This document shows, one piece after another, positions 45,843-62,501 of a stretch of 64,000 bases of DNA; the stretch's first letter is position 1; each line of letters starts with the position of its first letter. The stretch is taken from positions 1 through 64,000 of IMG/VR virus record IMGVR_UViG_3300043009_000039; one strand, given 5' to 3'. This DNA is from a virus. Lineage: Duplodnaviria > Caudoviricetes. The notes under the pieces were generated by a model that searched no databases, was not told the DNA's origin, and worked only from the letters and a program-made list of their open reading frames with translations. The position numbers were made by a program, and so were the translations under genes.

Positions 45843-46031
45843 TTATCGGTTTGACAATTCTGATTCGATTAATTTTTTCAACCCCTGACGGGTATCCGCT
45901 TTCACGAACGTATAATATTTGCCGCCCGTGTCGAAGAATGCCTCGAACATTCCCTGCGGTGTCATTCTTATAGAACCGATGTAGTTGCCGTCACGTTCAA
46001 TGTTTCCGTTTCTTTTAAATACAATTTTCAT
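45843..46031 (-). CDS. Early cassette 30, hypothetical
   Basis: ORF with hairpin/leader. Confidence 0.7.
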   Translation of the reverse strand: MKIVFKRNGNIERDGNYIGSIRMTPQGMFEAFFDTGGKYYTFVKADTRQGLKKLIESELSNR

Positions 46032-46076
46032 AACTTGTAGTTTTTAATTGGTTTGTGCAGTCGGGTTGCCCCGACT

Positions 46077-46454
46077 TTATTCATTAGACATAATCTCATC
46101 AAGAAGCTTTTCCAATTTAAGCCCAATCTCTTCCAACGTTTTTTCCGAGCCGAGTCTTATTGCACTTTTAAAGATGTAAAACAAATCCTGCGTCCGAAAC
46201 TCTCCGTAATCGCAGACCGTTTCACTTCCGTCCGTTTCATTGCATATGTAATCTGCTATTTCGTTTTTATAGAACGTTGAAAAATTGATGTAATCGTTTA
46301 CACAAGCAAGATAAAAGTTGGCGAGCCAGCTCTTACCCAAATAATCTCTTTCGGGATAATTCTCGTTTTGGCTTTCCAAACTGAAATGCTTCTTGCACAC
46401 TTTTACCACGATGACGTTAAATTCTCTTACTCCGAGTTCTTTAAATGTAATCAT
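46077..46454 (-). CDS. Early cassette 29, hypothetical
   Basis: ORF with hairpin/leader. Confidence 0.75.
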   Translation of the reverse strand: MITFKELGVREFNVIVVKVCKKHFSLESQNENYPERDYLGKSWLANFYLACVNDYINFSTFYKNEIADYICNETDGSETVCDYGEFRTQDLFYIFKSAIRLGSEKTLEEIGLKLEKLLDEIMSNE

Positions 46455-46511
46455 AATTCTAAGTTTTAATCGGTTAATAATTGGCGAGCGGTCTTGTCGA
46501 CCGCTTTAAGG

Positions 46512-46751
46512 CTAAACATAGCGCACTGCCCGGCCTTTACTTTTCGACAGCTGTTGGCGCAACAATTTTTTGTAGCCTCTTATATTGCATTCCATATTTC
46601 TGACGCATTCGTATGCCTCCGCTTTAGTCCAGAAGTAATATGTGTATTGCCAATACAAATCATATACAAACCACATTTTACCGCCTGAAACATCACACAG
46701 CCCTGCAAATCCAATGTTTTTACCTTTGTTGAATGATTCTAATAGTGCCAT
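46512..46751 (-). CDS. Early cassette 28, hypothetical
   Basis: ORF with hairpin/leader. Confidence 0.7.
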   Translation of the reverse strand: MALLESFNKGKNIGFAGLCDVSGGKMWFVYDLYWQYTYYFWTKAEAYECVRNMECNIRGYKKLLRQQLSKSKGRAVRYV

Positions 46752-46814
46752 AATATCTGAGTTTTATTGGTTGAACATGGTGAGCGGTCGTAAGTCCTAC
46801 AACCGCTCTTTAAG

Positions 46815-47360
46815 TTACAGCTCGCAGATGCCGATAACGTAATTGTGAGAGTCATAGCTGAACTCGACGGGCTGTTGCTTGACGGTATCGTAAAGCTCGC
46901 CGTTACAGATAATCAGCATCTCATCATCGTTTTTATCGTAAGCCGCGTCGCAGATTTTTTCGAATTGCTCTACCGCATCTTTTACTTCTTCGATGCTGTC
47001 GGCGTTTTCAAGCATCTCCATAAGATTGCCTTTATTCTCTTTGAAATACTGTTGCCCCGTACCGTAAAACGTAATGCAGTCGTCAGACAGATAACGCTCT
47101 ACGTCTATACCGTCACACATCCAATCGCGGAGTCTTGTGTAGAAATGATGCCCGTCGGGTCTGTCAAGCTCGAAGATGCATGTCTTTTTGAAGTACTTCT
47201 CTGCGACTTCGTTTGCAACGTCCATGTCCCTGAAGCCTATCAAAGCTTCTCTGACACCGTGAGGAAAATCGCTTTTGTCGTCGTTGGTTTCAACAATTCT
47301 AAGACTCGGGTAAACGTCCACAATGTGCTGTAACTTTTCGGAATATTCTTCTCGTGTCAT
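46815..47360 (-). CDS. Early cassette 27, acidic hypothetical
   Basis: 181 aa, D/E-rich. Confidence 0.8.
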   Translation of the reverse strand: MTREEYSEKLQHIVDVYPSLRIVETNDDKSDFPHGVREALIGFRDMDVANEVAEKYFKKTCIFELDRPDGHHFYTRLRDWMCDGIDVERYLSDDCITFYGTGQQYFKENKGNLMEMLENADSIEEVKDAVEQFEKICDAAYDKNDDEMLIICNGELYDTVKQQPVEFSYDSHNYVIGICEL

Positions 47361-47415
47361 AATGTATAAGTTTTATTGGTTAGTAGTAGCGGGCGGGACG
47401 TCCCACCCTTAAAGG

Positions 47416-47799
47416 TTAGAATTGAATGACCGAGCGTTTGTATTCCCAATGCCTTGCGTCCATAATCCTTGTCCGTTTCAGCTGACACAACGTGTATATC
47501 TTGTGAATATACTGAATGATTGCGGCTGTCGGGCGGGCGTCCTTTATGCAGTCCGCATTCTCTTCCGCAAACTTTCTCTCGTCAAACTCGGCGGAGTCTA
47601 CGATTCTCTTTATGCCCGTGTTTACCATATCTCCGTCGTCATACAATACGTAGCAATAGACTTCGGAATAATTATCGGACAAAGAGCGCAGGGCGTTTTT
47701 CTGATATGTTTTCTCGTTTTGTTTCGCCGTTTTCTTTTCAGCTCCCTCGGGATTAATGTTGAGTAACGGCAGTCTGTCATAATACATATTCTTTTTCAT
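47416..47799 (-). CDS. Early cassette 26, hypothetical
   Basis: ORF with hairpin/leader. Confidence 0.75.
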   Translation of the reverse strand: MKKNMYYDRLPLLNINPEGAEKKTAKQNEKTYQKNALRSLSDNYSEVYCYVLYDDGDMVNTGIKRIVDSAEFDERKFAEENADCIKDARPTAAIIQYIHKIYTLCQLKRTRIMDARHWEYKRSVIQF

Positions 47800-47848
47800 A
47801 ATCGTAAGTTTTGTTAGTACTCGTAGTCGGCCCGCAGACCGACTTTGG

Positions 47849-48190
47849 TCAATAAACGCTCTGTGGGTAATTTTTTAACGCCCAATCAATCGCTGATTGG
47901 CACTCTTTACGGGTTTTCCACTTAACGCCCACGCCGTTTAATTTTTGCGGTATGCCATGAAGATAGTCATATACCACCCACCATATTTTGCCGTCCAACG
48001 CTTCGCGTTTGATTGGCCTGAATCTGCCGAACAGTGCGCAGGAGCATTCAGCGAGTGTTCCTTTGCATTTAAATTCTCCGTTCAGATACGCGGTGTAGTA
48101 CATATCGCCCATACAGTTCCAATGGCGGTCAATTTCTCCGTATTTACCGCGATATTCATTCTTGGTGAACCATTGTGCATAATTTTCCAT
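47849..48190 (-). CDS. Early cassette 25, hypothetical
   Basis: ORF with hairpin/leader. Confidence 0.75.
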   Translation of the reverse strand: MENYAQWFTKNEYRGKYGEIDRHWNCMGDMYYTAYLNGEFKCKGTLAECSCALFGRFRPIKREALDGKIWWVVYDYLHGIPQKLNGVGVKWKTRKECQSAIDWALKNYPQSVY

Positions 48191-48242
48191 AATCGTAGCT
48201 TTATTGGTTAGATATTGTGGGCGGCTCTCGCACGCCCTTTGT

Positions 48243-48527
48243 TTAGAGTCTGCTGTAATATTTCAACAACGCGGCACAAATGTAGTAGTCATTGTAGTAT
48301 CGCATCCATCCGCCGCTTATGAGCATATCGTTTATCTCGCTGTCACGGAGCTTTCTTGTTTCCCGCTCTTCGATATACGATACTTTCATTGTTTCCTCAT
48401 CAACCGCCTCGATTTTGAACAACCCGTGACACAAACGGTCGTCGTCATCATCCGTGAGTTGTTTGAGGGCGTCATAAACATCTTCTGCACTGTATGCAAA
48501 TTCTACGGTTTTTTCTTTTGTTTCCAT
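48243..48527 (-). CDS. Early cassette 24, hypothetical (start METKEK)
   Basis: The leader motif fixes the start at 48527. Confidence 0.75.
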   Translation of the reverse strand: METKEKTVEFAYSAEDVYDALKQLTDDDDDRLCHGLFKIEAVDEETMKVSYIEERETRKLRDSEINDMLISGGWMRYYNDYYICAALLKYYSRL

Positions 48528-48574
48528 AATTCTTGTTTTTATTGGTTGGTTGCGGGCGGCATTAACCGCCACAA

Positions 48575-48859
48575 TTAAGGCAATGTTACGTAATAAAATC
48601 CGCACCCCTCTTTGATAAAATTAAAACCGTTCTGTCTAACCCAGTCAGCAAAGCCGATAAAATATTTACCGTTTACCTCCAAATACTCCCCGTAAATGGT
48701 TTTCCCGATTTTCGCGTCCGGTCTATCGAGGTAAAGATATTGAAATTCAATCCGTACACGAGTTTTTCCTTTCATAAAGAGTTCTGTGAGGTACTTTTCG
48801 ATTTGGCTGTAATCCAAATCTTTCGTCAAATCTGCTTTAATCTTTTGTGCTAAGTTCAT
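48575..48859 (-). CDS. Early cassette 23, hypothetical
   Basis: ORF with hairpin/leader. Confidence 0.75.
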   Translation of the reverse strand: MNLAQKIKADLTKDLDYSQIEKYLTELFMKGKTRVRIEFQYLYLDRPDAKIGKTIYGEYLEVNGKYFIGFADWVRQNGFNFIKEGCGFYYVTLP

Positions 48860-48909
48860 AATATGTAAGTTTTAGTTGGCAATTGTTAGCGGTCTGTGAC
48901 CGCTATCTT

Positions 48910-49238
48910 TCAATCGGTTAAAAAAACGTGATTCATCAATTGTTTCGGCACGCTTAACAGAACCGGGACAACCCACACGCCCCCGAAGGATTCATTATCA
49001 TTCAGCGCTTCGGCAAGCTCTTCGTATGAAAAAATCCAAGCTCTTCTTCGGAATAAATCTCTTCCTCGGTAAGATTGAATGTTTTTTCCATCAATTCAAG
49101 CGCGTCAATATTGTCATCGAACTTCTCCAAGTAGAACGCTTCAACGAATTTGCTTCTTTCGATTTCTTTACCGTTAACCGATATAGGACATACGAGAAAG
49201 AACGGTTCGTAACCGTCATGAGTCATAGTAATCTTCAT
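48910..49238 (-). pseudogene. Early cassette 22, frameshifted at a T6 tract (49029-49034)
   Basis: Frame 0 stops at 49002; the -1 frame continues SYEELAEALNDNESFGGVWVV... to a TGA at 48910 next to the following hairpin. Confidence 0.6.
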
Positions 49239-49292
49239 AATTATAAATTTTAGTTGGTTAATAATGTGGCCGGCCCGAAAGCCAGCCAATGT

Positions 49293-49577
49293 TTATGAAA
49301 GAGTGAAGTTGCCACGGTATAGCTTGAACACCATCGCTTGCGCTGTGTCGTACAATTTATCAAGGACTTGATTCTGCTCCTTTCGATGAGCCTTGTATTG
49401 CTCTTCGCTTGTAATCACTCCTTCAGCGATGAGCCTTTTTGTCTCGGCAACCTGCTTGGAGATAATCGCAATCTCGAGTCGTCTGTACTGGTCTCTGATT
49501 TCGAATATCGACTTGCCATTCGGCTGTAACTTCACCCATGAGGCTAATTTTTTGCCTACATTGAATCTCTGTTTCAT
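49293..49577 (-). CDS. Early cassette 21, hypothetical
   Basis: ORF with hairpin/leader. Confidence 0.75.
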   Translation of the reverse strand: MKQRFNVGKKLASWVKLQPNGKSIFEIRDQYRRLEIAIISKQVAETKRLIAEGVITSEEQYKAHRKEQNQVLDKLYDTAQAMVFKLYRGNFTLS

Positions 49578-49629
49578 AATTTCTATTTTATTGGTTAAAC
49601 ATTGGCGAGCGGAGTAATCCGCTCATTGA

Positions 49630-50040
49630 TTACCACTTAACTTGTTCTACCTCGTCAAGCTCTTTGCGAATCGTGTCTATCAGCTTTCGAGTCAAAGTAA
49701 CATCTTCGCACCCATACTCTATAACGGACGGACATTGGTTAATCAGCGATATTACGCCTTGTGTAACCATTAAGACCATGTAATCTTCAGGGTCGTCAAA
49801 CGGGTCTGTATAAGGGCCGCTGAGAACATCCCTTTCAAATTTCCAATAAGCCGACGCATCGGCACGCCATTCGCACAAGTATTCCAAGGCAAGCTCTTCG
49901 GACTCGGTGAGCGTGCCGTTGTAGTTTATGTCGTCCATAATGTAATCGCCTATATCACTTGCTTTGACTTCCATATCTTCTTTCCAAGGCAACTGCATTT
50001 TAGCCATTTCGCGGCAGTAATCAGTGAAATTCTTTTTCAT
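49630..50040 (-). CDS. Early cassette 20, acidic hypothetical
   Basis: 136 aa, D/E-rich. Confidence 0.75.
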   Translation of the reverse strand: MKKNFTDYCREMAKMQLPWKEDMEVKASDIGDYIMDDINYNGTLTESEELALEYLCEWRADASAYWKFERDVLSGPYTDPFDDPEDYMVLMVTQGVISLINQCPSVIEYGCEDVTLTRKLIDTIRKELDEVEQVKW

Positions 50041-50089
50041 AATTGTAAAGTTTTAAGTTTAGTTGTGAGCGGTAATAACCGCTCATTGA

Positions 50090-50632
50090 TTAGAAAGTGA
50101 GCACAAATTTATCATACGTATCCGAGTCCGCCACCTGCTCCATCTTCCCGCCAAGAAAGACGGCAACACCATAGTAGCAGCTCATCCCGCAACCGCTTTC
50201 AAAGTATGGTCGGAATCCGCCGTTACCGTAGTGTGCGCCAAGCGGGGCTTTTTTAGCTTTTCTTCTGCAACGCCACAACATTCCGCGGCATAACTGATTC
50301 ATTACGTCGGCTACCACGGTGGATTTTTTGTCGTAGCCCCAACCGCTGCAAGTGGCAGAGGCTTGCTTCCAATGTCCGTCGGAATACTGCGCCCATGCGG
50401 TGGCGTGCGGGTTGTAGCCCCAAGTTTTGTTGCGCTTCCATTCGATGTCGATTTCAAGCCGCTTTACGGGAAGCTCTTTATCCATCTGCTCAAATTCATC
50501 GTTTGCTCTCTTCAGCTCACCTCGTATGCCTCGCATCGTGGCTTTCTTTGAGTACTTTACGATATGTTCGATACACTTTACGGTAAGGTACGGATAGTCG
50601 TTTCTCAGGCTCTTTAATTCTTTGCGTGTCAT
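50090..50632 (-). CDS. Early cassette 19, hypothetical
   Basis: 180 aa; EWKRNKTWGYNP...SGWGYDK.S motif. Confidence 0.8.
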   Translation of the reverse strand: MTRKELKSLRNDYPYLTVKCIEHIVKYSKKATMRGIRGELKRANDEFEQMDKELPVKRLEIDIEWKRNKTWGYNPHATAWAQYSDGHWKQASATCSGWGYDKKSTVVADVMNQLCRGMLWRCRRKAKKAPLGAHYGNGGFRPYFESGCGMSCYYGVAVFLGGKMEQVADSDTYDKFVLTF

Positions 50633-50686
50633 AATTTCAAGTTTTTAATTGGTTAGTAATGGGTGTCGGGTCGCCCCGACAAATAA

Positions 50687-51031
50687 TCAAAACGTTTCGG
50701 AATGAACCCAAACGTTCCGTATTTCTATACGGATATACATTTCTCCGTTCTGATTAAAAACGTACATGTCGGTAAACTCATTCCATAGGTGAGTCCCATC
50801 GTGCCCGTTATGCACGGCTGTTATTTTAGTTATGTCGCCCCACGTCAGACGCTCTGCGATTTTACTATTCATAAAGTCACGCGCAAGCGCTTCGGTCTTG
50901 AAAGTGAAGCTGTCGATATTCGGCATGCGGGTTATTTTCGACGGTGTGTAATTTCCGCACATTTCGCCCAATCCTGAATAAGTTTCTTCAATGATACTTA
51001 CCACATAAACGTATTCTCTTTTATTTTCCAT
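50687..51031 (-). CDS. Early cassette 18, hypothetical
   Basis: ORF with hairpin/leader. Confidence 0.75.
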   Translation of the reverse strand: MENKREYVYVVSIIEETYSGLGEMCGNYTPSKITRMPNIDSFTFKTEALARDFMNSKIAERLTWGDITKITAVHNGHDGTHLWNEFTDMYVFNQNGEMYIRIEIRNVWVHSETF

Positions 51032-51065
51032 AATTTAAAAGTTTAATTGGTTGATTGCAAGGGGA

Positions 51066-51386
51066 TTACTCCCCTTTTTTGAACAGCTTGATTAAGACTT
51101 TGTCGCCTCTCTTGTAATAGCAGTGTTCGATTTCAAAGTGACTGTTCAACCGCCACTCCATTTCACCGAACGCTTTTGCGTATTCATTGTTGTCGTCGGC
51201 TTTCGAATAGTAGAAGAGAAGCTCGTCCGAGCCGTATTCCCATCCGAGAATTACGGGCGTTCGGCATATAAAGCCAACTGCACGGCATTCTTCGAAAATA
51301 TACTTGTCGTCGAATACCAAATTGCAAATCTTCTTCACTAACTTGTCGTCGTAGTCAAATACTGCGGGATTCAATTCTTCTTTCAT
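51066..51386 (-). CDS. Early cassette 17, hypothetical
   Basis: ORF with hairpin/leader. Confidence 0.75.
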   Translation of the reverse strand: MKEELNPAVFDYDDKLVKKICNLVFDDKYIFEECRAVGFICRTPVILGWEYGSDELLFYYSKADDNNEYAKAFGEMEWRLNSHFEIEHCYYKRGDKVLIKLFKKGE

Positions 51387-51432
51387 AATCTTTAAGTTTA
51401 ATGTTGGTTGCGGGCGGAATACTCCGCCCTTT

Positions 51433-51759
51433 TCAATCTTTGTGGTAAAAGGTTAGAAAGTAATTGTAGCTCGTTTTCCGAGTGTCTACGTAAATATCTT
51501 CGGGTAACGACTGTTTGACCGCCTCGATTCTGTCCTCCAACCGTTTCATGGAAGCCACGCTGATTGGCGATTCGGCCACGCATATCTTCAGGCGGTTGGT
51601 CGTTACGGCGTATGTGGCGCAGATTGGGACATTTGCGGCATAGCCGACCGACATTTCCTGCGACACTACTCTTGTGTCGAGGCGGCGGCCCTCGTCGAAC
51701 AACTCATCATAGATTTCACTTACCGAGATTGATTTTCCGTTTAATAATGCTCTCATCAT
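51433..51759 (-). CDS. Early cassette 16, hypothetical
   Basis: ORF with hairpin/leader. Confidence 0.75.
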   Translation of the reverse strand: MMRALLNGKSISVSEIYDELFDEGRRLDTRVVSQEMSVGYAANVPICATYAVTTNRLKICVAESPISVASMKRLEDRIEAVKQSLPEDIYVDTRKTSYNYFLTFYHKD

Positions 51760-51809
51760 AATTCAAAAGTTTTTAGGTGTGCGGTAGGCAAAGATAGCCT
51801 ACCTTTTGT

Positions 51810-52454
51810 TTAATACGGCGTCCCATCTTCAAGAAACTCGTATTCGTTCAAATTCAGTTCTTCTTCGACCGCCTCGTCCGAATAGCCCCAATCCACGTCG
51901 TCACCGTAGGCATCGGCCAAGGCGTCCACGCTTTTCTGTATCAAATCCTCCATCGTCGTATCGTTGTCGGGATGCTTCATGTAATCGACAATCGGCTGTA
52001 TCACCTCATAGTCGCAGCATACGCCCGTGAGCGGATAACTTGCCTCGGCGTCGTCGTACATTATTCGGCTCTTGCGCTGTTTCTTGTAGTCGCCCCGATA
52101 GAATGTACGCGGCTTGACCAAATACGGCATGATGTTGTTGCGTATGTACCGTTGAAGCAGTTTGCCGGACAACTCTTCAAGGCAGAGGTATTCGCTACCG
52201 TCCTCGGTGTCTATCATGTAGCACCAAGAGTCGTCGTTGAACTTCGGGCTGAACCATGTGCGTCCGCGGTCGTCTTTCACGTCGATACGTATGTCAAGCA
52301 GCTTCTCGAAAGCCTTGAGCGTTCCGATATAGTCGTCGGCGATACATTCTTCGTGATATGCGGCGCATTCGCCTCGCTTTGATTCAATCGCTTTTTTCTT
52401 TGCTTCTTCGGAAAGTTCGTCGTACTTGTAAAGTTTTACTTCTAAGGTTCTCAT
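51810..52454 (-). CDS. Early cassette 15, acidic protein of the widespread Y.YDELSEEAK.KAIE family
   Basis: 214 aa; LYKYDELSEEAKKKAIE start, NEYEFLEDG end. Confidence 0.8.
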   Translation of the reverse strand: MRTLEVKLYKYDELSEEAKKKAIESKRGECAAYHEECIADDYIGTLKAFEKLLDIRIDVKDDRGRTWFSPKFNDDSWCYMIDTEDGSEYLCLEELSGKLLQRYIRNNIMPYLVKPRTFYRGDYKKQRKSRIMYDDAEASYPLTGVCCDYEVIQPIVDYMKHPDNDTTMEDLIQKSVDALADAYGDDVDWGYSDEAVEEELNLNEYEFLEDGTPY

Positions 52455-52501
52455 AATTTCAAGTTTTAAGTTGGTTAATCGCGAGGGGCGAACCCCTCAA
52501 T

Positions 52502-52729
52502 TTACAAGACCTCGTGAGGCAGAACAGTGTCACGCGATACAACGTCGAACTCATGTGTGGAGCCGTTCAATTTAAGCCCGTAAATGTGCGCGTATTGGAT
52601 TTCTCTCGCCCACATGGATAGATTATCCAACTGCATCCTAAAACGCCTTAGAGCGGCATTTTTAGAGGTAAATATGGCTTTATAGCCGCAGGTCTGTCTG
52701 TCGAAAATTCTCAATTCATAAATTATCAT
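52502..52729 (-). CDS. Early cassette 14, hypothetical
   Basis: ORF with hairpin/leader. Confidence 0.7.
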   Translation of the reverse strand: MIIYELRIFDRQTCGYKAIFTSKNAALRRFRMQLDNLSMWAREIQYAHIYGLKLNGSTHEFDVVSRDTVLPHEVL

Positions 52730-52778
52730 AGCTTCTAAGTTTTATTGGTTGGTTGCAGACGGATTGCTCCGTCTTGAT

Positions 52779-52970
52779 TCAATATCCCTGCAGGTACGAC
52801 GGGGCTTCGTCGTCCTCGGTTTCACAAGCTCTGTGACGTTCCACAATTTCACAGTTGCAACCGTAGTTCATGAGCAGTTCTTCGCGCACGTCCGACGCTT
52901 CTTCGTATGTGTCGAAACAATCTTCAATGCATCCCGCGGCTTTATTCCAAAGTTCAAATTCAGTGTACAT
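52779..52970 (-). CDS. Early cassette 13, small acidic protein
   Basis: The leader fixes the ATG at 52970. Confidence 0.7.
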   Translation of the reverse strand: MYTEFELWNKAAGCIEDCFDTYEEASDVREELLMNYGCNCEIVERHRACETEDDEAPSYLQGY

Positions 52971-53013
52971 AATCAATTAGTTTTAGTTGTGAGCGGATTG
53001 CTCCGCCCGTGAT

Positions 53014-53532
53014 TCATTGTTGACCCCAATAAGTCCATGTTTTAACCTTTGACATTCCGTAGCGTTTGAGGTACGTCCGAAGTCGTTTCTCGAACTTGTC
53101 GCGTTCTTCGCGAACAAATCGTTCAAGCGGCTCGTAATCCTCTTCTTTCGGTTCGATACAGCTGTCGTAGTTGTGCCCCGAAATTCCGTAGATGTTCGCC
53201 TCTTTATAGGCGGTCATTTCGTAATGGTAGAGGTAGACTTCGCGTTTGGCGATACACTCGAGCATCCAGTCGTATTCGCGAAGATTCTCTTTCATGAAGT
53301 AGTCTTCGCTTGTACGCGCGTATTCAGCTTGTTCGACCGCTCTGTTATAATCGAAGCTGTCGTCAAAGCAGAACTTTGTCTCAATGCGCGGCTTGCCTAT
53401 AATTACGATTTTACCGTCGTCAAGTTTGATTGCATTCGAGAATCCCCGCATCATATATTCGGGGTTAAGGCCCATCTTTTCATATTCGCGCATGATTTCA
53501 TCCTGCAATTCATGTTGCTTGATATTCTTCAT
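53014..53532 (-). CDS. Early cassette 12, hypothetical
   Basis: 172 aa. Confidence 0.8.
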   Translation of the reverse strand: MKNIKQHELQDEIMREYEKMGLNPEYMMRGFSNAIKLDDGKIVIIGKPRIETKFCFDDSFDYNRAVEQAEYARTSEDYFMKENLREYDWMLECIAKREVYLYHYEMTAYKEANIYGISGHNYDSCIEPKEEDYEPLERFVREERDKFEKRLRTYLKRYGMSKVKTWTYWGQQ

Positions 53533-53633
53533 AATTCTAAGTTTTAGTTGGTTAAACAGTACGCGGCAACAGCTCGGGCCGCCGCCGCGTTTTTTAAGGC
53601 TGTACTATACAGCCCTCGCCAAATACCTCTCGG

Positions 53634-53969
53634 TTAATTCTTATACACCCTTTGGTTAATTCTTTTCACATACAGCGACCACGTTGTAAAGTGATTGGTT
53701 TCAAGGCATTGGCACGTCACACGGCCTATCAGGTCGCAATAGCCCTTTGTTTCGGGCGTGTTCATGTAGGATTCCGTGATTCGGTAAGTTCTTTCGGGTT
53801 CGCCGGGCGCTCTGTAAAACCACGAGCCGCAGCGCACACCGTATTCGATTTCCCGCATCTGTTCCTTTGCTTTCTTCAAACTTGTAAATGCAAATGTCGG
53901 AATGGAGCATGATTGCCACGTACTGCCTTCAGTCCACTGATGTTCGTTGATAATATAAATATAATCCAT
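53634..53969 (-). CDS. Early cassette 11, hypothetical
   Basis: ORF with hairpin/leader. Confidence 0.75.
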   Translation of the reverse strand: MDYIYIINEHQWTEGSTWQSCSIPTFAFTSLKKAKEQMREIEYGVRCGSWFYRAPGEPERTYRITESYMNTPETKGYCDLIGRVTCQCLETNHFTTWSLYVKRINQRVYKN

Positions 53970-54030
53970 AATGATAAGTTTTATTGGTTTAACACGGCAG
54001 ACGGTCTTTCAACCGTCTTTTTGCGGATAA

Positions 54031-54402
54031 TTACTCATCTTCGTCGTCGTAGCTCATCTCGATACAGTCGTGCCAATCGCCGTCGGCGTATATTTCGTCG
54101 GAGTAATAATCCGCCTCCCACTCCACGTCCTCTTCACTTGCAGACACAAATCTTCCGTTGGCGTCCTGCAGGATATAGCGGTCGGCGAGGTTCACTTGTC
54201 CGCCCCGCAGGTCGCGCACGAGTTCCATCGGATTGTCTTTGTATCGCTGAATATTAAAGAAATCTTCGTTCAGCTCATGCCACACACAATCGTAGTATCT
54301 CTGATTCTCGAAATATCGGTTCAGCAGGGCCAATCGTTGGCCATGTGTCAGACTCTTAAATTTTTCTTTCCATGCTTCGCGGCGAGAATATTCTTTTTCC
54401 AT
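54031..54402 (-). CDS. Early cassette 10, acidic hypothetical
   Basis: 123 aa, D/E-rich C-terminus. Confidence 0.75.
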   Translation of the reverse strand: MEKEYSRREAWKEKFKSLTHGQRLALLNRYFENQRYYDCVWHELNEDFFNIQRYKDNPMELVRDLRGGQVNLADRYILQDANGRFVSASEEDVEWEADYYSDEIYADGDWHDCIEMSYDDEDE

Positions 54403-54464
54403 AATTCATAAGTTTAATCGGTTAATAATTGCAAGAGGTCGGTCGGGAAACCAACCTCTTCGGC

Positions 54465-54770
54465 TCAGACAAGTTCAATGTCGATTCCATACGGAAGCGA
54501 TTCGCTATTTTCGTAATAGTCGAATTTATACGTAGGTCTAAGGCCCAGTTCGCGTTTACATAAGCGTTTTTCTATCACCTGCTTTATCTTCCCCTCGTCG
54601 ATTACTTTCGTAAGTTCGACTTCGTAATGTGGCGTAGACGTACCGATTGTTTCGTGCGTGATTCGTGCAATTGCAACAAGTCCGTGGAACTTGTCATAAA
54701 AATAGATGCCGCTCGCCGCGAACACTACGTACATTTCAACTCCGTAATTCTTGGTTCTTAAAAATTCCAT
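54465..54770 (-). CDS. Early cassette 9, hypothetical (start MEFLRTK)
   Basis: The leader fixes the ATG at 54770. Confidence 0.7.
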   Translation of the reverse strand: MEFLRTKNYGVEMYVVFAASGIYFYDKFHGLVAIARITHETIGTSTPHYEVELTKVIDEGKIKQVIEKRLCKRELGLRPTYKFDYYENSESLPYGIDIELV

Positions 54771-54832
54771 AACTGTAAATTTATTGGTTAGCTGTAAGAG
54801 GTCGCGTGACGACACACAACCTCCGATTCGTT

Positions 54833-55102
54833 TCATTTGTCAAGCGTGCAAGTCGCATAGTAAGGCGAAAAGCAACCGTCTTTATAAAGCGACGCCGCAT
54901 AGCCCCGACGGGTCTTGTAGACTTTCACGCAGCCCGATTCATACGAGCTTCGTTCTTTGCACACAAAGCCCCCTACCGCCTTGTAGGTTTTCGGCTTCTT
55001 TTCTTTCGGTTTGATTGAACCCGCGTAATGCATTGTCACGCCCGTAAACAGTTCGCCGTTTACCTTAAAAGGCTTTTCAGAGGTAAGTTTGTAAGTTTTC
55101 AT
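54833..55102 (-). CDS. Early cassette 8, basic hypothetical
   Basis: ORF with hairpin/leader. Confidence 0.7.
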   Translation of the reverse strand: MKTYKLTSEKPFKVNGELFTGVTMHYAGSIKPKEKKPKTYKAVGGFVCKERSSYESGCVKVYKTRRGYAASLYKDGCFSPYYATCTLDK

Positions 55103-55162
55103 AATTCAGTAGTTTTATTGGTTCGTGGAAGAGGGCGTGTTTTCGGGCACACCCTCCGTAAT

Positions 55163-55288
55163 TCAGTCGATTTCGACCGTCGAATCGTTCAAATCCACGT
55201 GCGCGTATAAATCTTCGGCAAAGTCGGGTTCTATAAACTCTTCAAATACGCGCAATTCGCCTTGGAAATAAATAGTTCCGTCAAGCAT
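55163..55288 (-). CDS. 41-aa acidic peptide coupled to cassette 7
   Basis: MLDGTIYFQGELRVFEEFIEPDFAEDLYAHVDLNDSTVEID; stop abuts the next hairpin. Confidence 0.6.
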   Translation of the reverse strand: MLDGTIYFQGELRVFEEFIEPDFAEDLYAHVDLNDSTVEID

Positions 55289-55466
55289 TTTTGTTTCCTC
55301 CCTTCTTTTCGTCGGTCGGGTCTATTATTTCCCCTATCGGAAACACGCCCATAAGGCCCGACAGAAACGCCAAATAGCAAACATCCGTGCCCATAAAGTT
55401 GTAGAACACAAACACGGCGAAAGCTTCAAAGAATACAAACAGAAGAAACAGATAAATCGTTCTCAT
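55281..55466 (-). CDS. Early cassette 7, small membrane protein
   Basis: 61 aa, two hydrophobic helices. Confidence 0.7.
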   Translation of the reverse strand: MRTIYLFLLFVFFEAFAVFVFYNFMGTDVCYLAFLSGLMGVFPIGEIIDPTDEKKGGNKNA

Positions 55467-55529
55467 AATTCATAAAGTTTTATTGGTTGGTAACAGTAAG
55501 CGGTTCGACCCCGAAAGAGCCAAACCGCC

Positions 55530-55790
55530 TTAATTCATTCCCATCCCCACGGACACAGCTCGCCCGCGGGGGGTAATCTGCCACGACAGTTCGTTCCTGC
55601 CGTCGTAGATAGTCCATCCGATGCCGTTGTCGCCCCTTTTATGCAGGGCGATATGCAGACAGCGGCGCACGATTCGCTTCAGTTCGGTTGAGTGTAAAGT
55701 CTTACAGAAACTTTCACTCGCGATAATTGCGGAAAACTCACCCTTTCGGGCAAAGTTCGTCCATGCGATTTCATCGTAAAAGGTTTTCAT
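55530..55790 (-). CDS. Early cassette 6, hypothetical (start MKTFYDE)
   Basis: The leader fixes the ATG at 55790. Confidence 0.7.
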   Translation of the reverse strand: MKTFYDEIAWTNFARKGEFSAIIASESFCKTLHSTELKRIVRRCLHIALHKRGDNGIGWTIYDGRNELSWQITPRGRAVSVGMGMN

Positions 55791-55851
55791 AAATAGTTTT
55801 ATTGGTTGGTTCGGAGAGGGTTCGCCCCGATACGGTTTGAACCCCCTGATT

Positions 55852-56037
55852 TCAGGCGAACATATCGTACAGTTCTTCAAGGCGTGCCTTTGCGTCCTCG
55901 ATTCGGGCGAATAGAGTCGTTCGGTTCCAGTACTCGAAGTGATTCTTTTCACCTACTGTTTCAAACGAAATTTCGGCTACTTGTCCGTCGTGTTCGTAGC
56001 TGTTCCATGCCACGTAATAGTAAGTTTTTGCTTTCAT
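55852..56037 (-). CDS. Early cassette 5, hypothetical
   Basis: ORF with hairpin/leader. Confidence 0.7.
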   Translation of the reverse strand: MKAKTYYYVAWNSYEHDGQVAEISFETVGEKNHFEYWNRTTLFARIEDAKARLEELYDMFA

Positions 56038-56105
56038 AATTTATTAAGTTTTATTGGTTGGTTAATTCGCAGACGGTTCGACCCCGAAGAATCGAACCCC
56101 CTGAT

Positions 56106-56543
56106 TCAGATTTGGTCCAGAAAGTCGGCCAAGTCTTTTTCCGTAGCTTTCAGTCCGAGCGCACGTTTGCGCATCAGATATTCTTTGATTCCGAATCGGG
56201 ATATAAGAACATCCCGATTTGATTCGTCCTGAAAGAGTCGGTCGATAAGTTCGTCTTGCATAGCAAGCTCGTACTTCAGATTTTCGGCCTCCTGCTTCGA
56301 CGCTTCCAGTTCTTTGCGAGCGTCCTCCAACGCTTTCGCAGTCCCTTTGAGGTCTGCGATAATCGCATAGTTCTTCCGCGCTTCGTTTACCGCGGACACA
56401 AACAAACCCTTTGTGTTTTCAGGGAGTTTGCTCCAAATTTCACAGAACATATTTTTATCTAACTCGCAGAACATATAGATATAGTTCGCAACTTTGTACT
56501 CTTCGGCCTTGCAGCCTCTTTCGATAAATTCATTAAGTAACAT
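56106..56543 (-). CDS. Early cassette 4, coiled-coil hypothetical
   Basis: 145 aa; YMFCELDKNMFCEIW motif followed by heptads. Confidence 0.75.
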   Translation of the reverse strand: MLLNEFIERGCKAEEYKVANYIYMFCELDKNMFCEIWSKLPENTKGLFVSAVNEARKNYAIIADLKGTAKALEDARKELEASKQEAENLKYELAMQDELIDRLFQDESNRDVLISRFGIKEYLMRKRALGLKATEKDLADFLDQI

Positions 56544-56608
56544 AACAGTAAGTTTTATTGGTTAAACGTGGAAAGAGGCTTCAGGATTAAGCCCGAAACC
56601 TCTCTAAT

Positions 56609-56794
56609 TTAAAATTCGAAGTCTGTAAATACCTTGAATGTTCCTTTATGAAACGATTCGTAGTTCGTGTCGTCAAATTTGTAGACGGAATACATTTTGG
56701 TCGCACGGTCGTATTCGCCGCGCACCCAAACAACGGCGGACGATTCTTTCATTTTAAAGAGTTCGCCCTTTTTAAGTTCTGATAATTTTTTCAT
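56609..56794 (-). CDS. Early cassette 3, small hypothetical
   Basis: 61 aa (LSELKKGELF...VWVRGEYDR). Confidence 0.75.
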   Translation of the reverse strand: MKKLSELKKGELFKMKESSAVVWVRGEYDRATKMYSVYKFDDTNYESFHKGTFKVFTDFEF

Positions 56795-56839
56795 AATTCG
56801 TTTGATTGATTCGTAAAGGGTCGAATTGCCCCGACCCGA

Positions 56840-57193
56840 TTAAGCAAAGTAATTCTTTACAGTTTGGTAGTCCAGTCCGTAACGCTTACGTATTCGCGCA
56901 ATTTCGGCGTTAAATTCGCGTGCTGAGTCGAAACAGCACAGTTCGAGGGCTTTAATCAATTCAAGCCCGTAAAGGCTCGGATTATTCACCTCGATAGCTC
57001 GCAGTTCGCCCCGACGGTTTCGGGCGCAATTATCCACGAATTTTATCGTTTCTTTGTACCCTTTGCCCGCCCCTTTCTTTTTTCGGCTCGATACGACGTA
57101 TTTGCCCCGATTTTTCGGTTCAGGCTCGCACGGTTCAGGCTCGCACGCTTTTTTAGCTTTATAAAGCCCTTCATAGTACTCTAATAAGTTCAT
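56840..57193 (-). CDS. Early cassette 2, hypothetical (downstream of the hammerhead)
   Basis: 117 aa. Confidence 0.7.
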   Translation of the reverse strand: MNLLEYYEGLYKAKKACEPEPCEPEPKNRGKYVVSSRKKKGAGKGYKETIKFVDNCARNRRGELRAIEVNNPSLYGLELIKALELCCFDSAREFNAEIARIRKRYGLDYQTVKNYFA

Positions 57194-57214
57194 AATTGTT
57201 TAAGTTTGGTTCAT

Positions 57215-57273
57215 AGTCCGACGCCCAGTAGTAAGGGCGTTTCGTCGCAATTCTCAGCGACTCTTCAGGGACT
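57215..57273 (-). ncRNA. Type I hammerhead ribozyme; predicted cleavage after GUC, between 57220 and 57219
   Basis: Minus strand: AGUCC CUGAAGA GUCGC-UGAGAAUU-GCGAC GAA ACGCCC-UUACUACU-GGGCGU C GGACU; all core nucleotides and three stems present. Confidence 0.88.
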
Positions 57274-57531
57274 TTAAAACTGCATCGTTTCAAAAGATAC
57301 AATTTCAAAGTAATTCAAATTCACCTCGATTTTCGGGCACAGTTTTTCCCCGAAAAAGTACAGTTTAACGCCAGTAAAGCGCATGAAACGGTTTATAAGC
57401 CGCTCAGGCGTGTCTTGATAACGGTCGTTGAAATACGATACGACGAACCCGTTTTCAACTCTTAATCTCGGTTCAATCAGGGCAAATTCAAGCCCTGATT
57501 CTTTTTCGCGTAATACGATTTTGTAGTTCAT
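57274..57531 (-). CDS. Early cassette 1, hypothetical (downstream of mini-tRNA C)
   Basis: 85 aa; its stop abuts the hammerhead. Confidence 0.7.
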   Translation of the reverse strand: MNYKIVLREKESGLEFALIEPRLRVENGFVVSYFNDRYQDTPERLINRFMRFTGVKLYFFGEKLCPKIEVNLNYFEIVSFETMQF

Positions 57532-57558: not shown

Positions 57559-57606
57559 TAAGGGCGCGGGGGTTCGAACCCCGTAAAAATTCCACAATTC
57601 GCCCCT
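57559..57606 (-). ncRNA. Anticodon-less tRNA-like element C (48 nt)
   Basis: AGGGGCG / 16-nt linker containing GG / CGGGG-TTCGAAC-CCCCG / CGCCCTT-A: 7-bp acceptor stem plus 5-bp T-stem with a canonical T-loop. Confidence 0.7.
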
Positions 57607-58140: not shown

Positions 58141-58197
58141 TTAGAGTTCTGACCAACTCTAACGCTACAAAAGTAGGTATAATCGATTATATGCAAA
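58141..58197 (-). promoter_or_regulatory. Early promoter TTTG-N18-TACTTTTG followed by an 8-bp 5' hairpin (58141-58162)
   Basis: -33 at 58194-58197 and -7 at 58168-58175 on the minus strand; TTAGAGTT/AACTCTAA hairpin. Confidence 0.55.
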
Positions 58198-58483
58198 GGT
58201 CAATTTTCCCACAAAGTTAGCTAATTTGTCGGTAATTACTTATCTTGTTGAATATCAATAAGTTAGGTTATTAAGATAGTTGTAGTTAGTTATTACCTAT
58301 TATATACAACTGTAGTAAGTACAATTACAGATTACGGATTAATCGACGCCGTATAATTGCCACAATTGCGACGCCTCAAGATGCAATTATAGTAGCACAC
58401 TAATAATTACAGTTGGTACACTTTACCCCCTTGAGTTGATGCATCAACTTTGCCCCGCCCCTTTGTTTCGTCGACGTCGTGAA

Positions 58484-58545
58484 ACTACCTACTACCTACT
58501 ACCTACTACCTACTACCTACTATCTATATAAGTAAGTAGTAGGTA
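58484..58545. repeat. Tandem (ACTACCT)x5 plus one degenerate copy and an inverted partial copy
   Basis: 58484-58525 tandem; AGTAGTAGGTA at 58535-58545. Confidence 0.9.
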
Positions 58546-62037: not shown

Positions 62038-62068
62038 TTTGAATTTGAGAAAAGTGTCTTTATATTTG
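62038..62068 (+). promoter_or_regulatory. Consensus Bacteroidetes promoter TTTG-N19-TATATTTG
   Basis: TTTG 62038-62041, TATATTTG 62061-62068. Confidence 0.7.
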
Positions 62069-62235: not shown

Positions 62236-62286
62236 GGGTGCGGCGCAGTCGGGCGCTTATCGGGTTCGAATCCCGCGCATCCACCA
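62236..62286 (+). ncRNA. Anticodon-less tRNA-like element A (51 nt) with G3.U70, A73 and encoded CCA
   Basis: GGGTGCG / GCGC-AGTCGG-GCGC TTAT / CGGG-TTCGAAT-CCCG / CGCATCC-A-CCA. Confidence 0.75.
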
Positions 62287-62394
62287 TGCGGCGACTTAGA
62301 CCTTCAAGTTTGTTAAGTGTTTAATTAAATGGGTGTTAGTATGCTTATCTTGATTACTTGGAGTATTTTGGCAATGGTCGAAGTTGTCGCAGAC

Positions 62395-62443
62395 GGGAGC
62401 GCCGCGCGGGCGGTCGTCGAAGGTTCGAGTCCTTCCGCTCCCA
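62395..62443 (+). ncRNA. Anticodon-less tRNA-like element B (49 nt)
   Basis: GGGAGCG / CCGC-GCGG-GCGG TCGTC / GAAGG-TTCGAGT-CCTTC / CGCTCCC-A. Confidence 0.75.
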
Positions 62444-62501
62444 CTTGGAATCAGGACATATCTCGACTGTCCTCTCGGTAAAGATGAAGAAACTCTATGT
62501 G

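Follow-up and report, generated by a model that had tools for sequence, protein, structure and literature searches.

A type I hammerhead ribozyme motif at an early-gene junction of a probable Bacteroidota phage

Between ORF1 and ORF2, two small early genes that open a long operon of an uncultured phage, we find a 59-nt motif that, judged by its letters and predicted fold, is a genuine and canonical type I hammerhead ribozyme on the coding strand. The source record comprises 85,821 nt and is rated complete by CheckV; the window analyzed here is its first 64 kb. Our preferred reading, to which we assign a probability of about 0.7, is that this ribozyme would act within a leftward polycistronic early mRNA, its self-cleavage separating the ORF1 and ORF2 cistrons. 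The window copy belongs, as an ordinary member, to a ribozyme class widespread in phages, and only the slot it occupies is unusual. The locus provides a clean natural comparison. In one operon, and next to one conserved start region, the same slot is taken by a hairpin, a hammerhead or a tRNA-like element; this equivalence of three kinds of element makes the function of junction elements testable.

The hammerhead motif and its predicted fold

The core strand C3 U4 G5 A6 N7 G8 A9 is complete in the window copy, the GAA strand is followed by the A15.1-U16.1 pair (A57240 with U57221), and the cleavage triplet obeys the NUH rule, H17 not being G. Stems I, II and III span 5, 5 and 6 bp, with stem I open and stems II and III closed by loops, and there is no mispair beside the core, G1.1-C2.1 and G10.1-C11.1 both being paired. 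The predicted cut falls between C57220 and G57219 on the minus strand. Folding an 81-nt context returned exactly this three-way junction as the minimum free energy (MFE) structure (-26 kcal/mol, z -3.45), an energy that none of 200 shuffles matched, and the MFE fold was the hammerhead junction in contexts of 59–141 nt. The sequence read and the MFE junction thereby bear out the original prediction of a canonical hammerhead on the coding strand, with the stems, core and GUC triplet it had described. Its placement also stood: the motif begins at the base directly after the ORF1 stop codon, and the predicted cut leaves ORF2 a 26-nt leader (57219-57194). Within this leader, an upstream AUG opens a four-codon mini-ORF (AUG AAC CAA ACU UAA, 57199-57213, minus strand) that is out of the ORF2 frame.

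Table 1. Positions of the ribozyme motif, its neighbors and related elements. Window positions unless a locus is named.
Feature	Position	Strand	Basis or remark
Type I hammerhead ribozyme motif, 59 nt	57273..57215	minus	Sequence read, MFE fold, class model R1
Stem I 5' strand, AGUCC	57273-57269	minus	Sequence read
Core strand C3-A9, CUGAAGA	57268-57262	minus	Fits CUGANGA consensus; columns invariant in 49-sequence class alignment (among the matches listed)
Stem II, GUCGC with GCGAC, 5 bp	57261-57257; partner 57248-57244	minus	Sequence read
Loop II, UGAGAAUU, 8 nt, closing 5-bp stem II	57256-57249	minus	Same loop in many phage hammerheads with covarying stem II
Core G12 A13 A14 (GAA)	57243-57241	minus	Sequence read; invariant in class (among the matches listed)
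Stem III, ACGCCC with GGGCGU, 6 bp; loop UUACUACU	57240-57235 with 57226-57221; loop 57234-57227	minus	Sequence read
C17 of cleavage triplet GUC	57220	minus	Triplet G57222 U57221 C57220
Stem I 3' strand, GGACU	57219-57215	minus	Sequence read
Competing 10-bp pairing, three pairs G-U	57346-57355 with 57262-57271	minus	Fold prediction
ORF1, 85 aa	57274..57531	minus	ORF list; stop TAA 57276-57274 abuts ribozyme
ORF2, 117 aa, downstream of predicted cut	56840..57193	minus	ORF list; ATG 57193-57191
ORF2 leader: AUG then AACCAAACUUAAACAAUU, local copy of the array's start-region motif	57194..57214	minus	Junction comparison
Array of small genes	45843..57193	minus	Junction folds and motif scan
tRNA-like element without anticodon arm	57560..57606	minus	Rfam mascRNA model, 27.8 bits (gathering 42.5)
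Candidate Bacteroidota-type promoter: TTTG, ~21 nt, TACTTTTG	58168..58205	minus	Consensus scan only
G015 hammerhead-like element	L305 1040-1107; L178 1512-1579	plus (L305)	Stop-ribozyme-leader-ATG slot
Pistol and Twister-P5 ribozymes	L277 2749-2816, 3724-3785; L290 8600-8667, 6027-6088		Rfam above threshold; within a few kb of a hammerhead

With our own hammerhead descriptor, we found one site in the whole 85.8-kb genome. Across 300 dinucleotide shuffles of that genome, the descriptor gave four loose matches and none with equally good stems, which makes a chance origin unlikely; extrapolating from the loose shuffle rate, we estimate about 6e-5 motifs with stems this good per genome.

One further detail of the original prediction, an extension of stem I across an internal loop, found no support: 5-bp distal pairing arises in ~19% of shuffled flanks and is not enriched in 57 relatives among the matches listed, and the 3' partner of the proposed extension is part of the leader motif common to all units. 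For fast cleavage at cellular Mg2+, a hammerhead needs stem I and loop II to be joined by a tertiary contact. We looked for a partner for this contact in the window copy and found none; class-wide conservation of loop II, UGAGAAUU, hints at such a contact. When at least 90 nt of upstream ORF1 sequence are included, ORF1 codons are predicted to pair at equilibrium with the core and the 5' strand of stem I; this structure is ~2 kcal/mol better than the active fold and lowers the probability of stem I to ~0.04. This competing pairing may reflect slow or translation-dependent cleavage, or an error of the energy model.

A phage class of hammerheads with a UGAGA loop II

Using a search pattern derived from two copies, that in the window and one in the related phage G015 (CTGANGAG-N3-8-TGAGA-N4-10-CGAAACG), we scanned viral contigs and obtained at least 119 stretches, with 80 loci among the matches listed. 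About three quarters of the 88 pattern matches in these 80 listed loci are complete type I hammerheads, and at least 57 distinct ones, all with a UGAGA loop II, were extracted. Among the matches listed, stem I has 4–6 bp (5 bp in 44 of 57), the 5-bp stem II carries the loop UGAGAAUU or UGAGAYY, GUC or GUA forms the cleavage site, and a 20–45-nt leader is followed by ATG; in 36 of 57 of them the first base of stem I directly adjoins a preceding stop triplet, mostly TAA. The window copy shares with this class the core, the 5-bp stem II with loop UGAGAAUU, the 5-bp stem I, GUC, the abutting stop and the short leader to ATG. It differs in having a loop III of 8 nt, compared with mostly 4–6 nt among the matches listed, and in its downstream leader, which, unlike those of the class, has no Shine-Dalgarno sequence and bears the AACCAA motif of the array instead.

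Alignment of 49 members among the matches listed (alignment A2) showed 99.3% of cells paired and 174 double-sided changes, and none of 500 shuffles reached the observed number of paired cells, double-sided changes or covariation score. Stems I and III were demanded at extraction, so their pairing is partly selected; stem II, constrained by neither the pattern nor the extraction, has 100% of its cells paired and four covarying pairs. In stem III, the A15.1-U16.1, C-G and G-C pairs are invariant across the 49 members (among the matches listed). This covariation is a property of the class, the window copy itself being without orthologues.

An unrelated 76.6-kb phage record (G020) is identical to the window copy across the 31 nt of core, stem II and loop II; its stems I and III differ. 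The type I hammerheads closest to the window copy among the matches listed lie on L277 and L290, where Pistol and Twister-P5 ribozymes adjoin them above Rfam thresholds. On these matches, both loci are mixed-class ribozyme arrays, and because these ribozymes adjoin the two closest copies, the class falls in recognized ribozyme neighborhoods.

The general Rfam hammerhead model, Hammerhead_1 (RF00163), describes the same topology, with stem I open and the same core, and the stem-proximal pairs of the window copy match its consensus (GUC/GAC in stem II, ACG/CGU in stem III). A search with this model had been suggested as a check of the original prediction, and here the outcome went against it: the window copy scored 17.3 bits against a gathering score of 34, below threshold, with E-values of 0.51 (901 nt searched) and 0.0115 (whole genome searched). 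RF00163 penalizes the 8-nt loops and the 5-bp stem I. At its gathering score, it failed to call any clear type I hammerhead in 11 phage loci of the class (L239, L245, L253, L277, L290, L296, L298, L301, L305, L317 and L269, the last with a copy cut by the locus end), and because the same threshold misses these class members, the sub-threshold score says little about the window copy. The class thus seems to escape standard annotation; by missing a large class of phage hammerheads, RF00163 leaves such elements unannotated in viral genomes. A covariance model built from the 49 phage hammerheads with the window copy left out (R1) scored the window copy at 63.8 bits (E 2.6e-20), the next match in the window reaching 10 bits; this score is partly circular, as the relatives were retrieved with a pattern taken from the window copy, and the E-value is rough.

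The junction slot and the relatives of the phage

The hammerhead adjoins an array of small genes with a near-universal junction order: stop codon, a few bases, a GC hairpin of 7–14 bp, a AACCAAUAAAACUU-type leader, a few bases, AUU and ATG. About two dozen array junctions carry a plain hairpin, and junction folds place the GC hairpins of these other units in the slot that the hammerhead fills, as had been predicted; at the hammerhead junction the leader motif AACCAAACUUAAACAAUU is kept and the ribozyme replaces the hairpin. From this slot equivalence it is reasonable to infer that the hairpins may be processing or stabilizing signals. The array hairpins are not followed by U-tracts in the junction folds, and an Rfam scan of the array at E-values up to 2 gave no match. 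Searching viral contigs for the 14-nt leader motif returned scattered single chance matches only.

A third kind of element holds the slot 28 nt before the ORF1 ATG, where a tRNA-like element has a 7-bp acceptor stem, a short D-like hairpin and a GGGGUUCGAACCCC T arm. Its E-value against the mascRNA model was 0.0025 when 901 nt were searched and 0.015 over 5.5 kb, and ARAGORN called no tRNA at this position.

Scanning with TTTG/TAnnTTTG, which we take to be the Bacteroidota promoter consensus, we found candidate promoters at the heads of arrays both here and in a related phage (G009), and few within the array. The candidate listed in Table 1 could head a leftward transcript, and one long transcript fits a pattern in which candidate promoters head the arrays with few inside. 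The consensus had no match in the leaders, and we rejected the leader motif as a promoter on this ground. We likewise rejected the idea that the hairpins are N4-like promoters served by a virion RNA polymerase, since the 2529-aa protein considered for that role matches tape-measure-type families. The host is probably a member of Bacteroidota, which fits the starts without Shine-Dalgarno sequences and the TTTG/TAnnTTTG-type promoter matches that head operons.

The phage terminase is ~25% identical to terminases of Bacteroides and Phocaeicola phages and 50–68% identical to many metagenomic proteins; the terminase alignment supplied 49 IMG/VR loci. The comparison within the family covered 19 related phage records, 8 of them complete. 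Many of the terminase homologs (P0016, P0017, P0020 and others) are ~880 aa long with homing-endonuclease/LAGLIDADG domains (PF05204, PF14528), which suggests inteins; the terminase of the window phage has 545 aa and lacks these domains.

Among the relatives, G009 (L175, minus strand; terminase 51% identical) has the same hairpin and leader array under a promoter-like site, and the module is also present on the 1.26-kb contig L003, which carries the one distant homolog of ORF2 that we found (P0002, 41% identity). In the L003 gap upstream of P0002 there are two plain hairpins and the leader motif, with no hammerhead. Because G009 has the same array, the hairpin and leader module is a family trait, with the hammerhead a sporadic substitute. 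The other ORF2-bearing contigs come from the same phage (100% identity across 6354 nt) and therefore yield no covariation. A near-identity DNA search of phage isolates gave no match, single-protein searches of viral contigs with ORF1, ORF2 and terminase returned no relatives, ORF1 had no homolog in viral contigs, and a homolog search with the neighboring 255-aa gene returned only itself. The flanking genes are common to no other retrieved hammerhead locus, tBLASTn of ORF1-ORF4 against all retrieved loci being without a match.

Viral contigs held no exact copy of the hammerhead. Searches of the 19 related records with RF00163, RF02276 and RF00008, the last two of which also took in the phage's own record, produced a single sub-threshold match, in G015, and R1 detected no further strong copy over 1.03 Mb of relatives. 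Hammerhead-like elements are thus found in 2 of 20 records of the phage family (the window phage and G015), with 18 of the 19 related records having none; on this comparison the window copy is not conserved. The G015 element runs from a stop codon through GUGAA and CUGACGA to a stem II that is interrupted and capped by loop UGAGAU, continues with GAAA, a long stem III, GUA and UUCAC, and leads into GAAACCAAUUAAAA and ATG, with all core bases present. Its stem I is AU-rich, weak and absent from the MFE fold; for that reason, we count it only as a probable second hammerhead in the family.

Proposed transcript processing and alternative readings

The coding-strand orientation of the ribozyme and its exact position between a stop codon and a conserved leader support a role in cistron separation. 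Transcription of the whole array as a single RNA would start at a head promoter near 58175. As soon as stem I has gained its 3' strand, the three-way junction would fold and, as known hammerhead chemistry leads one to expect, self-cleavage would follow at C57220/G57219. The upstream piece, comprising leader and ORF1, would then terminate in the hairpin of stem III and carry a 2',3'-cyclic phosphate, leaving a structured 3' end on the upstream message, and the downstream piece would begin with a 5'-OH and a 26-nt leader that retains the array's start-region motif ahead of ORF2. On its own, the ribozyme would do what the GC hairpins may do elsewhere with host nucleases, splitting neighboring cistrons.

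In phage T7 early RNA, host RNase III cuts long imperfect hairpins between early genes. At these sites, as in the synthetic RiboJ insulator, the cistron is freed, a 3' hairpin is kept upstream and a defined 5' end is created downstream. In contrast to T7, the RNA here would cut itself, and the neighboring 7–14-bp hairpins are short for RNase III. The layout of an intergenic phage hammerhead was already published in 2011, when consensus hammerheads of phages and prophages were described that lie, on the coding strand, in the gaps separating small phage genes (Perreault et al. 2011, PMC3088659; for a review see PMC6765202). Their proposed role, the cutting of long phage transcripts into gene-length mRNAs, is the one we propose here, and what hammerheads do biologically in bacteria and phages is still called unsettled (PMC6765202). 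Unlike the clustered hammerheads of that study (PMC3088659), the window has a single copy, in an array with about two dozen hairpin and leader junctions and one tRNA-like junction. The PeSL cassettes of T4-type phages (PMC2839356, PMC4122927) likewise place a repeated stem-loop and conserved sequence around small, fast-changing early genes. A PeSL combines an early promoter with a terminator-like stem-loop, whereas the leaders here have no match to the TTTG/TAnnTTTG consensus, the hairpins have no U-tracts after them and one module is a ribozyme; we rejected a promoter/terminator cassette of the PeSL type on the absence of both signals.

A chance match without evolved ribozyme function is very improbable. 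The sub-threshold Rfam score, the single copy and the missing orthologue leave room for it, as do the some 250,000 windows scanned, which could give a few chance matches, with the extrapolated rate for stems this good being far smaller (~6e-5 per genome). Against chance stand the shuffled genomes, in which nothing as good arose, the match to a large natural class, which reaches past the core into the stem-proximal pairs and the 8-nt loop II, and the exact coding-strand placement from stop to leader, as in 36 of 57 class members among the matches listed. A weightier reading, one we nevertheless hold to be unlikely, is a hammerhead by descent that is slow or inactive here and serves only as a double hairpin in the same role as the single GC hairpins of the other junctions, for example as a barrier to 3' exonucleases or as a spacer insulating the start region. 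The hammerhead does replace a hairpin in an otherwise uniform array, the ORF2 homolog on L003 has two plain hairpins in the slot, the core is sequestered once upstream sequence is included in the fold, and the copy shows neither a tertiary contact nor distal stem I pairing better than chance. A decaying copy, however, would be expected to lose some of the 11 fixed bases, and all core bases are intact and match a class under clear purifying selection; moreover, the 2 kcal/mol gap lies within the error of an energy model that ignores co-transcriptional folding and ribosomes on ORF1.

It is less probable again that the ribozyme is active with a main role other than routine cistron separation, either as a switch, in which translation of ORF1 would release the core from the competing pairing and so tie cleavage to translation, or as the marker of a horizontally moving cassette, for which the PeSLs of T4-type phages offer a precedent in mobile junction modules (PMC2839356, PMC4122927). 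The alternative pairing does use ORF1 codons, but its helix contains three G-U pairs and may be a prediction artifact. The sporadic occurrence in 2 of 20 records of the family and the G020 element, identical over 31 nt with differing stems I and III, would suit such a role; the flanking genes, however, are absent from all other retrieved hammerhead loci, and a single copy cannot excise or circularize a cassette. Self-cleavage that separates the two cistrons remains the reading we prefer.

We tentatively extend cistron separation to the array as a whole, a proposal that is more doubtful than the ribozyme itself: three interchangeable devices might punctuate the early transcripts, namely the tRNA-like element (through RNase P/Z), the hammerhead, and the GC hairpins, some two dozen in number, by guiding a host nuclease or blocking an exonuclease. 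Were this true, the hammerhead unit would show the purpose of the hairpins, and the array would be a natural bacterial-virus parallel to mitochondrial tRNA punctuation.

Elsewhere in the window, by sequence reading, two further anticodon-less tRNA-like elements (62236-62286 and ~62393-62450, plus strand) flank a long self-paired spacer; Rfam gave no match for either at E-values up to 1. The first has a G3-U70 pair, a discriminator A and an encoded CCA, and a good promoter match at 62061 lies upstream of both. Finally, the ~1.1-kb non-coding region between the divergent early operons contains about six CTACCTA-type heptamer repeats (58488-58530, plus strand), which may be iterons or an origin.
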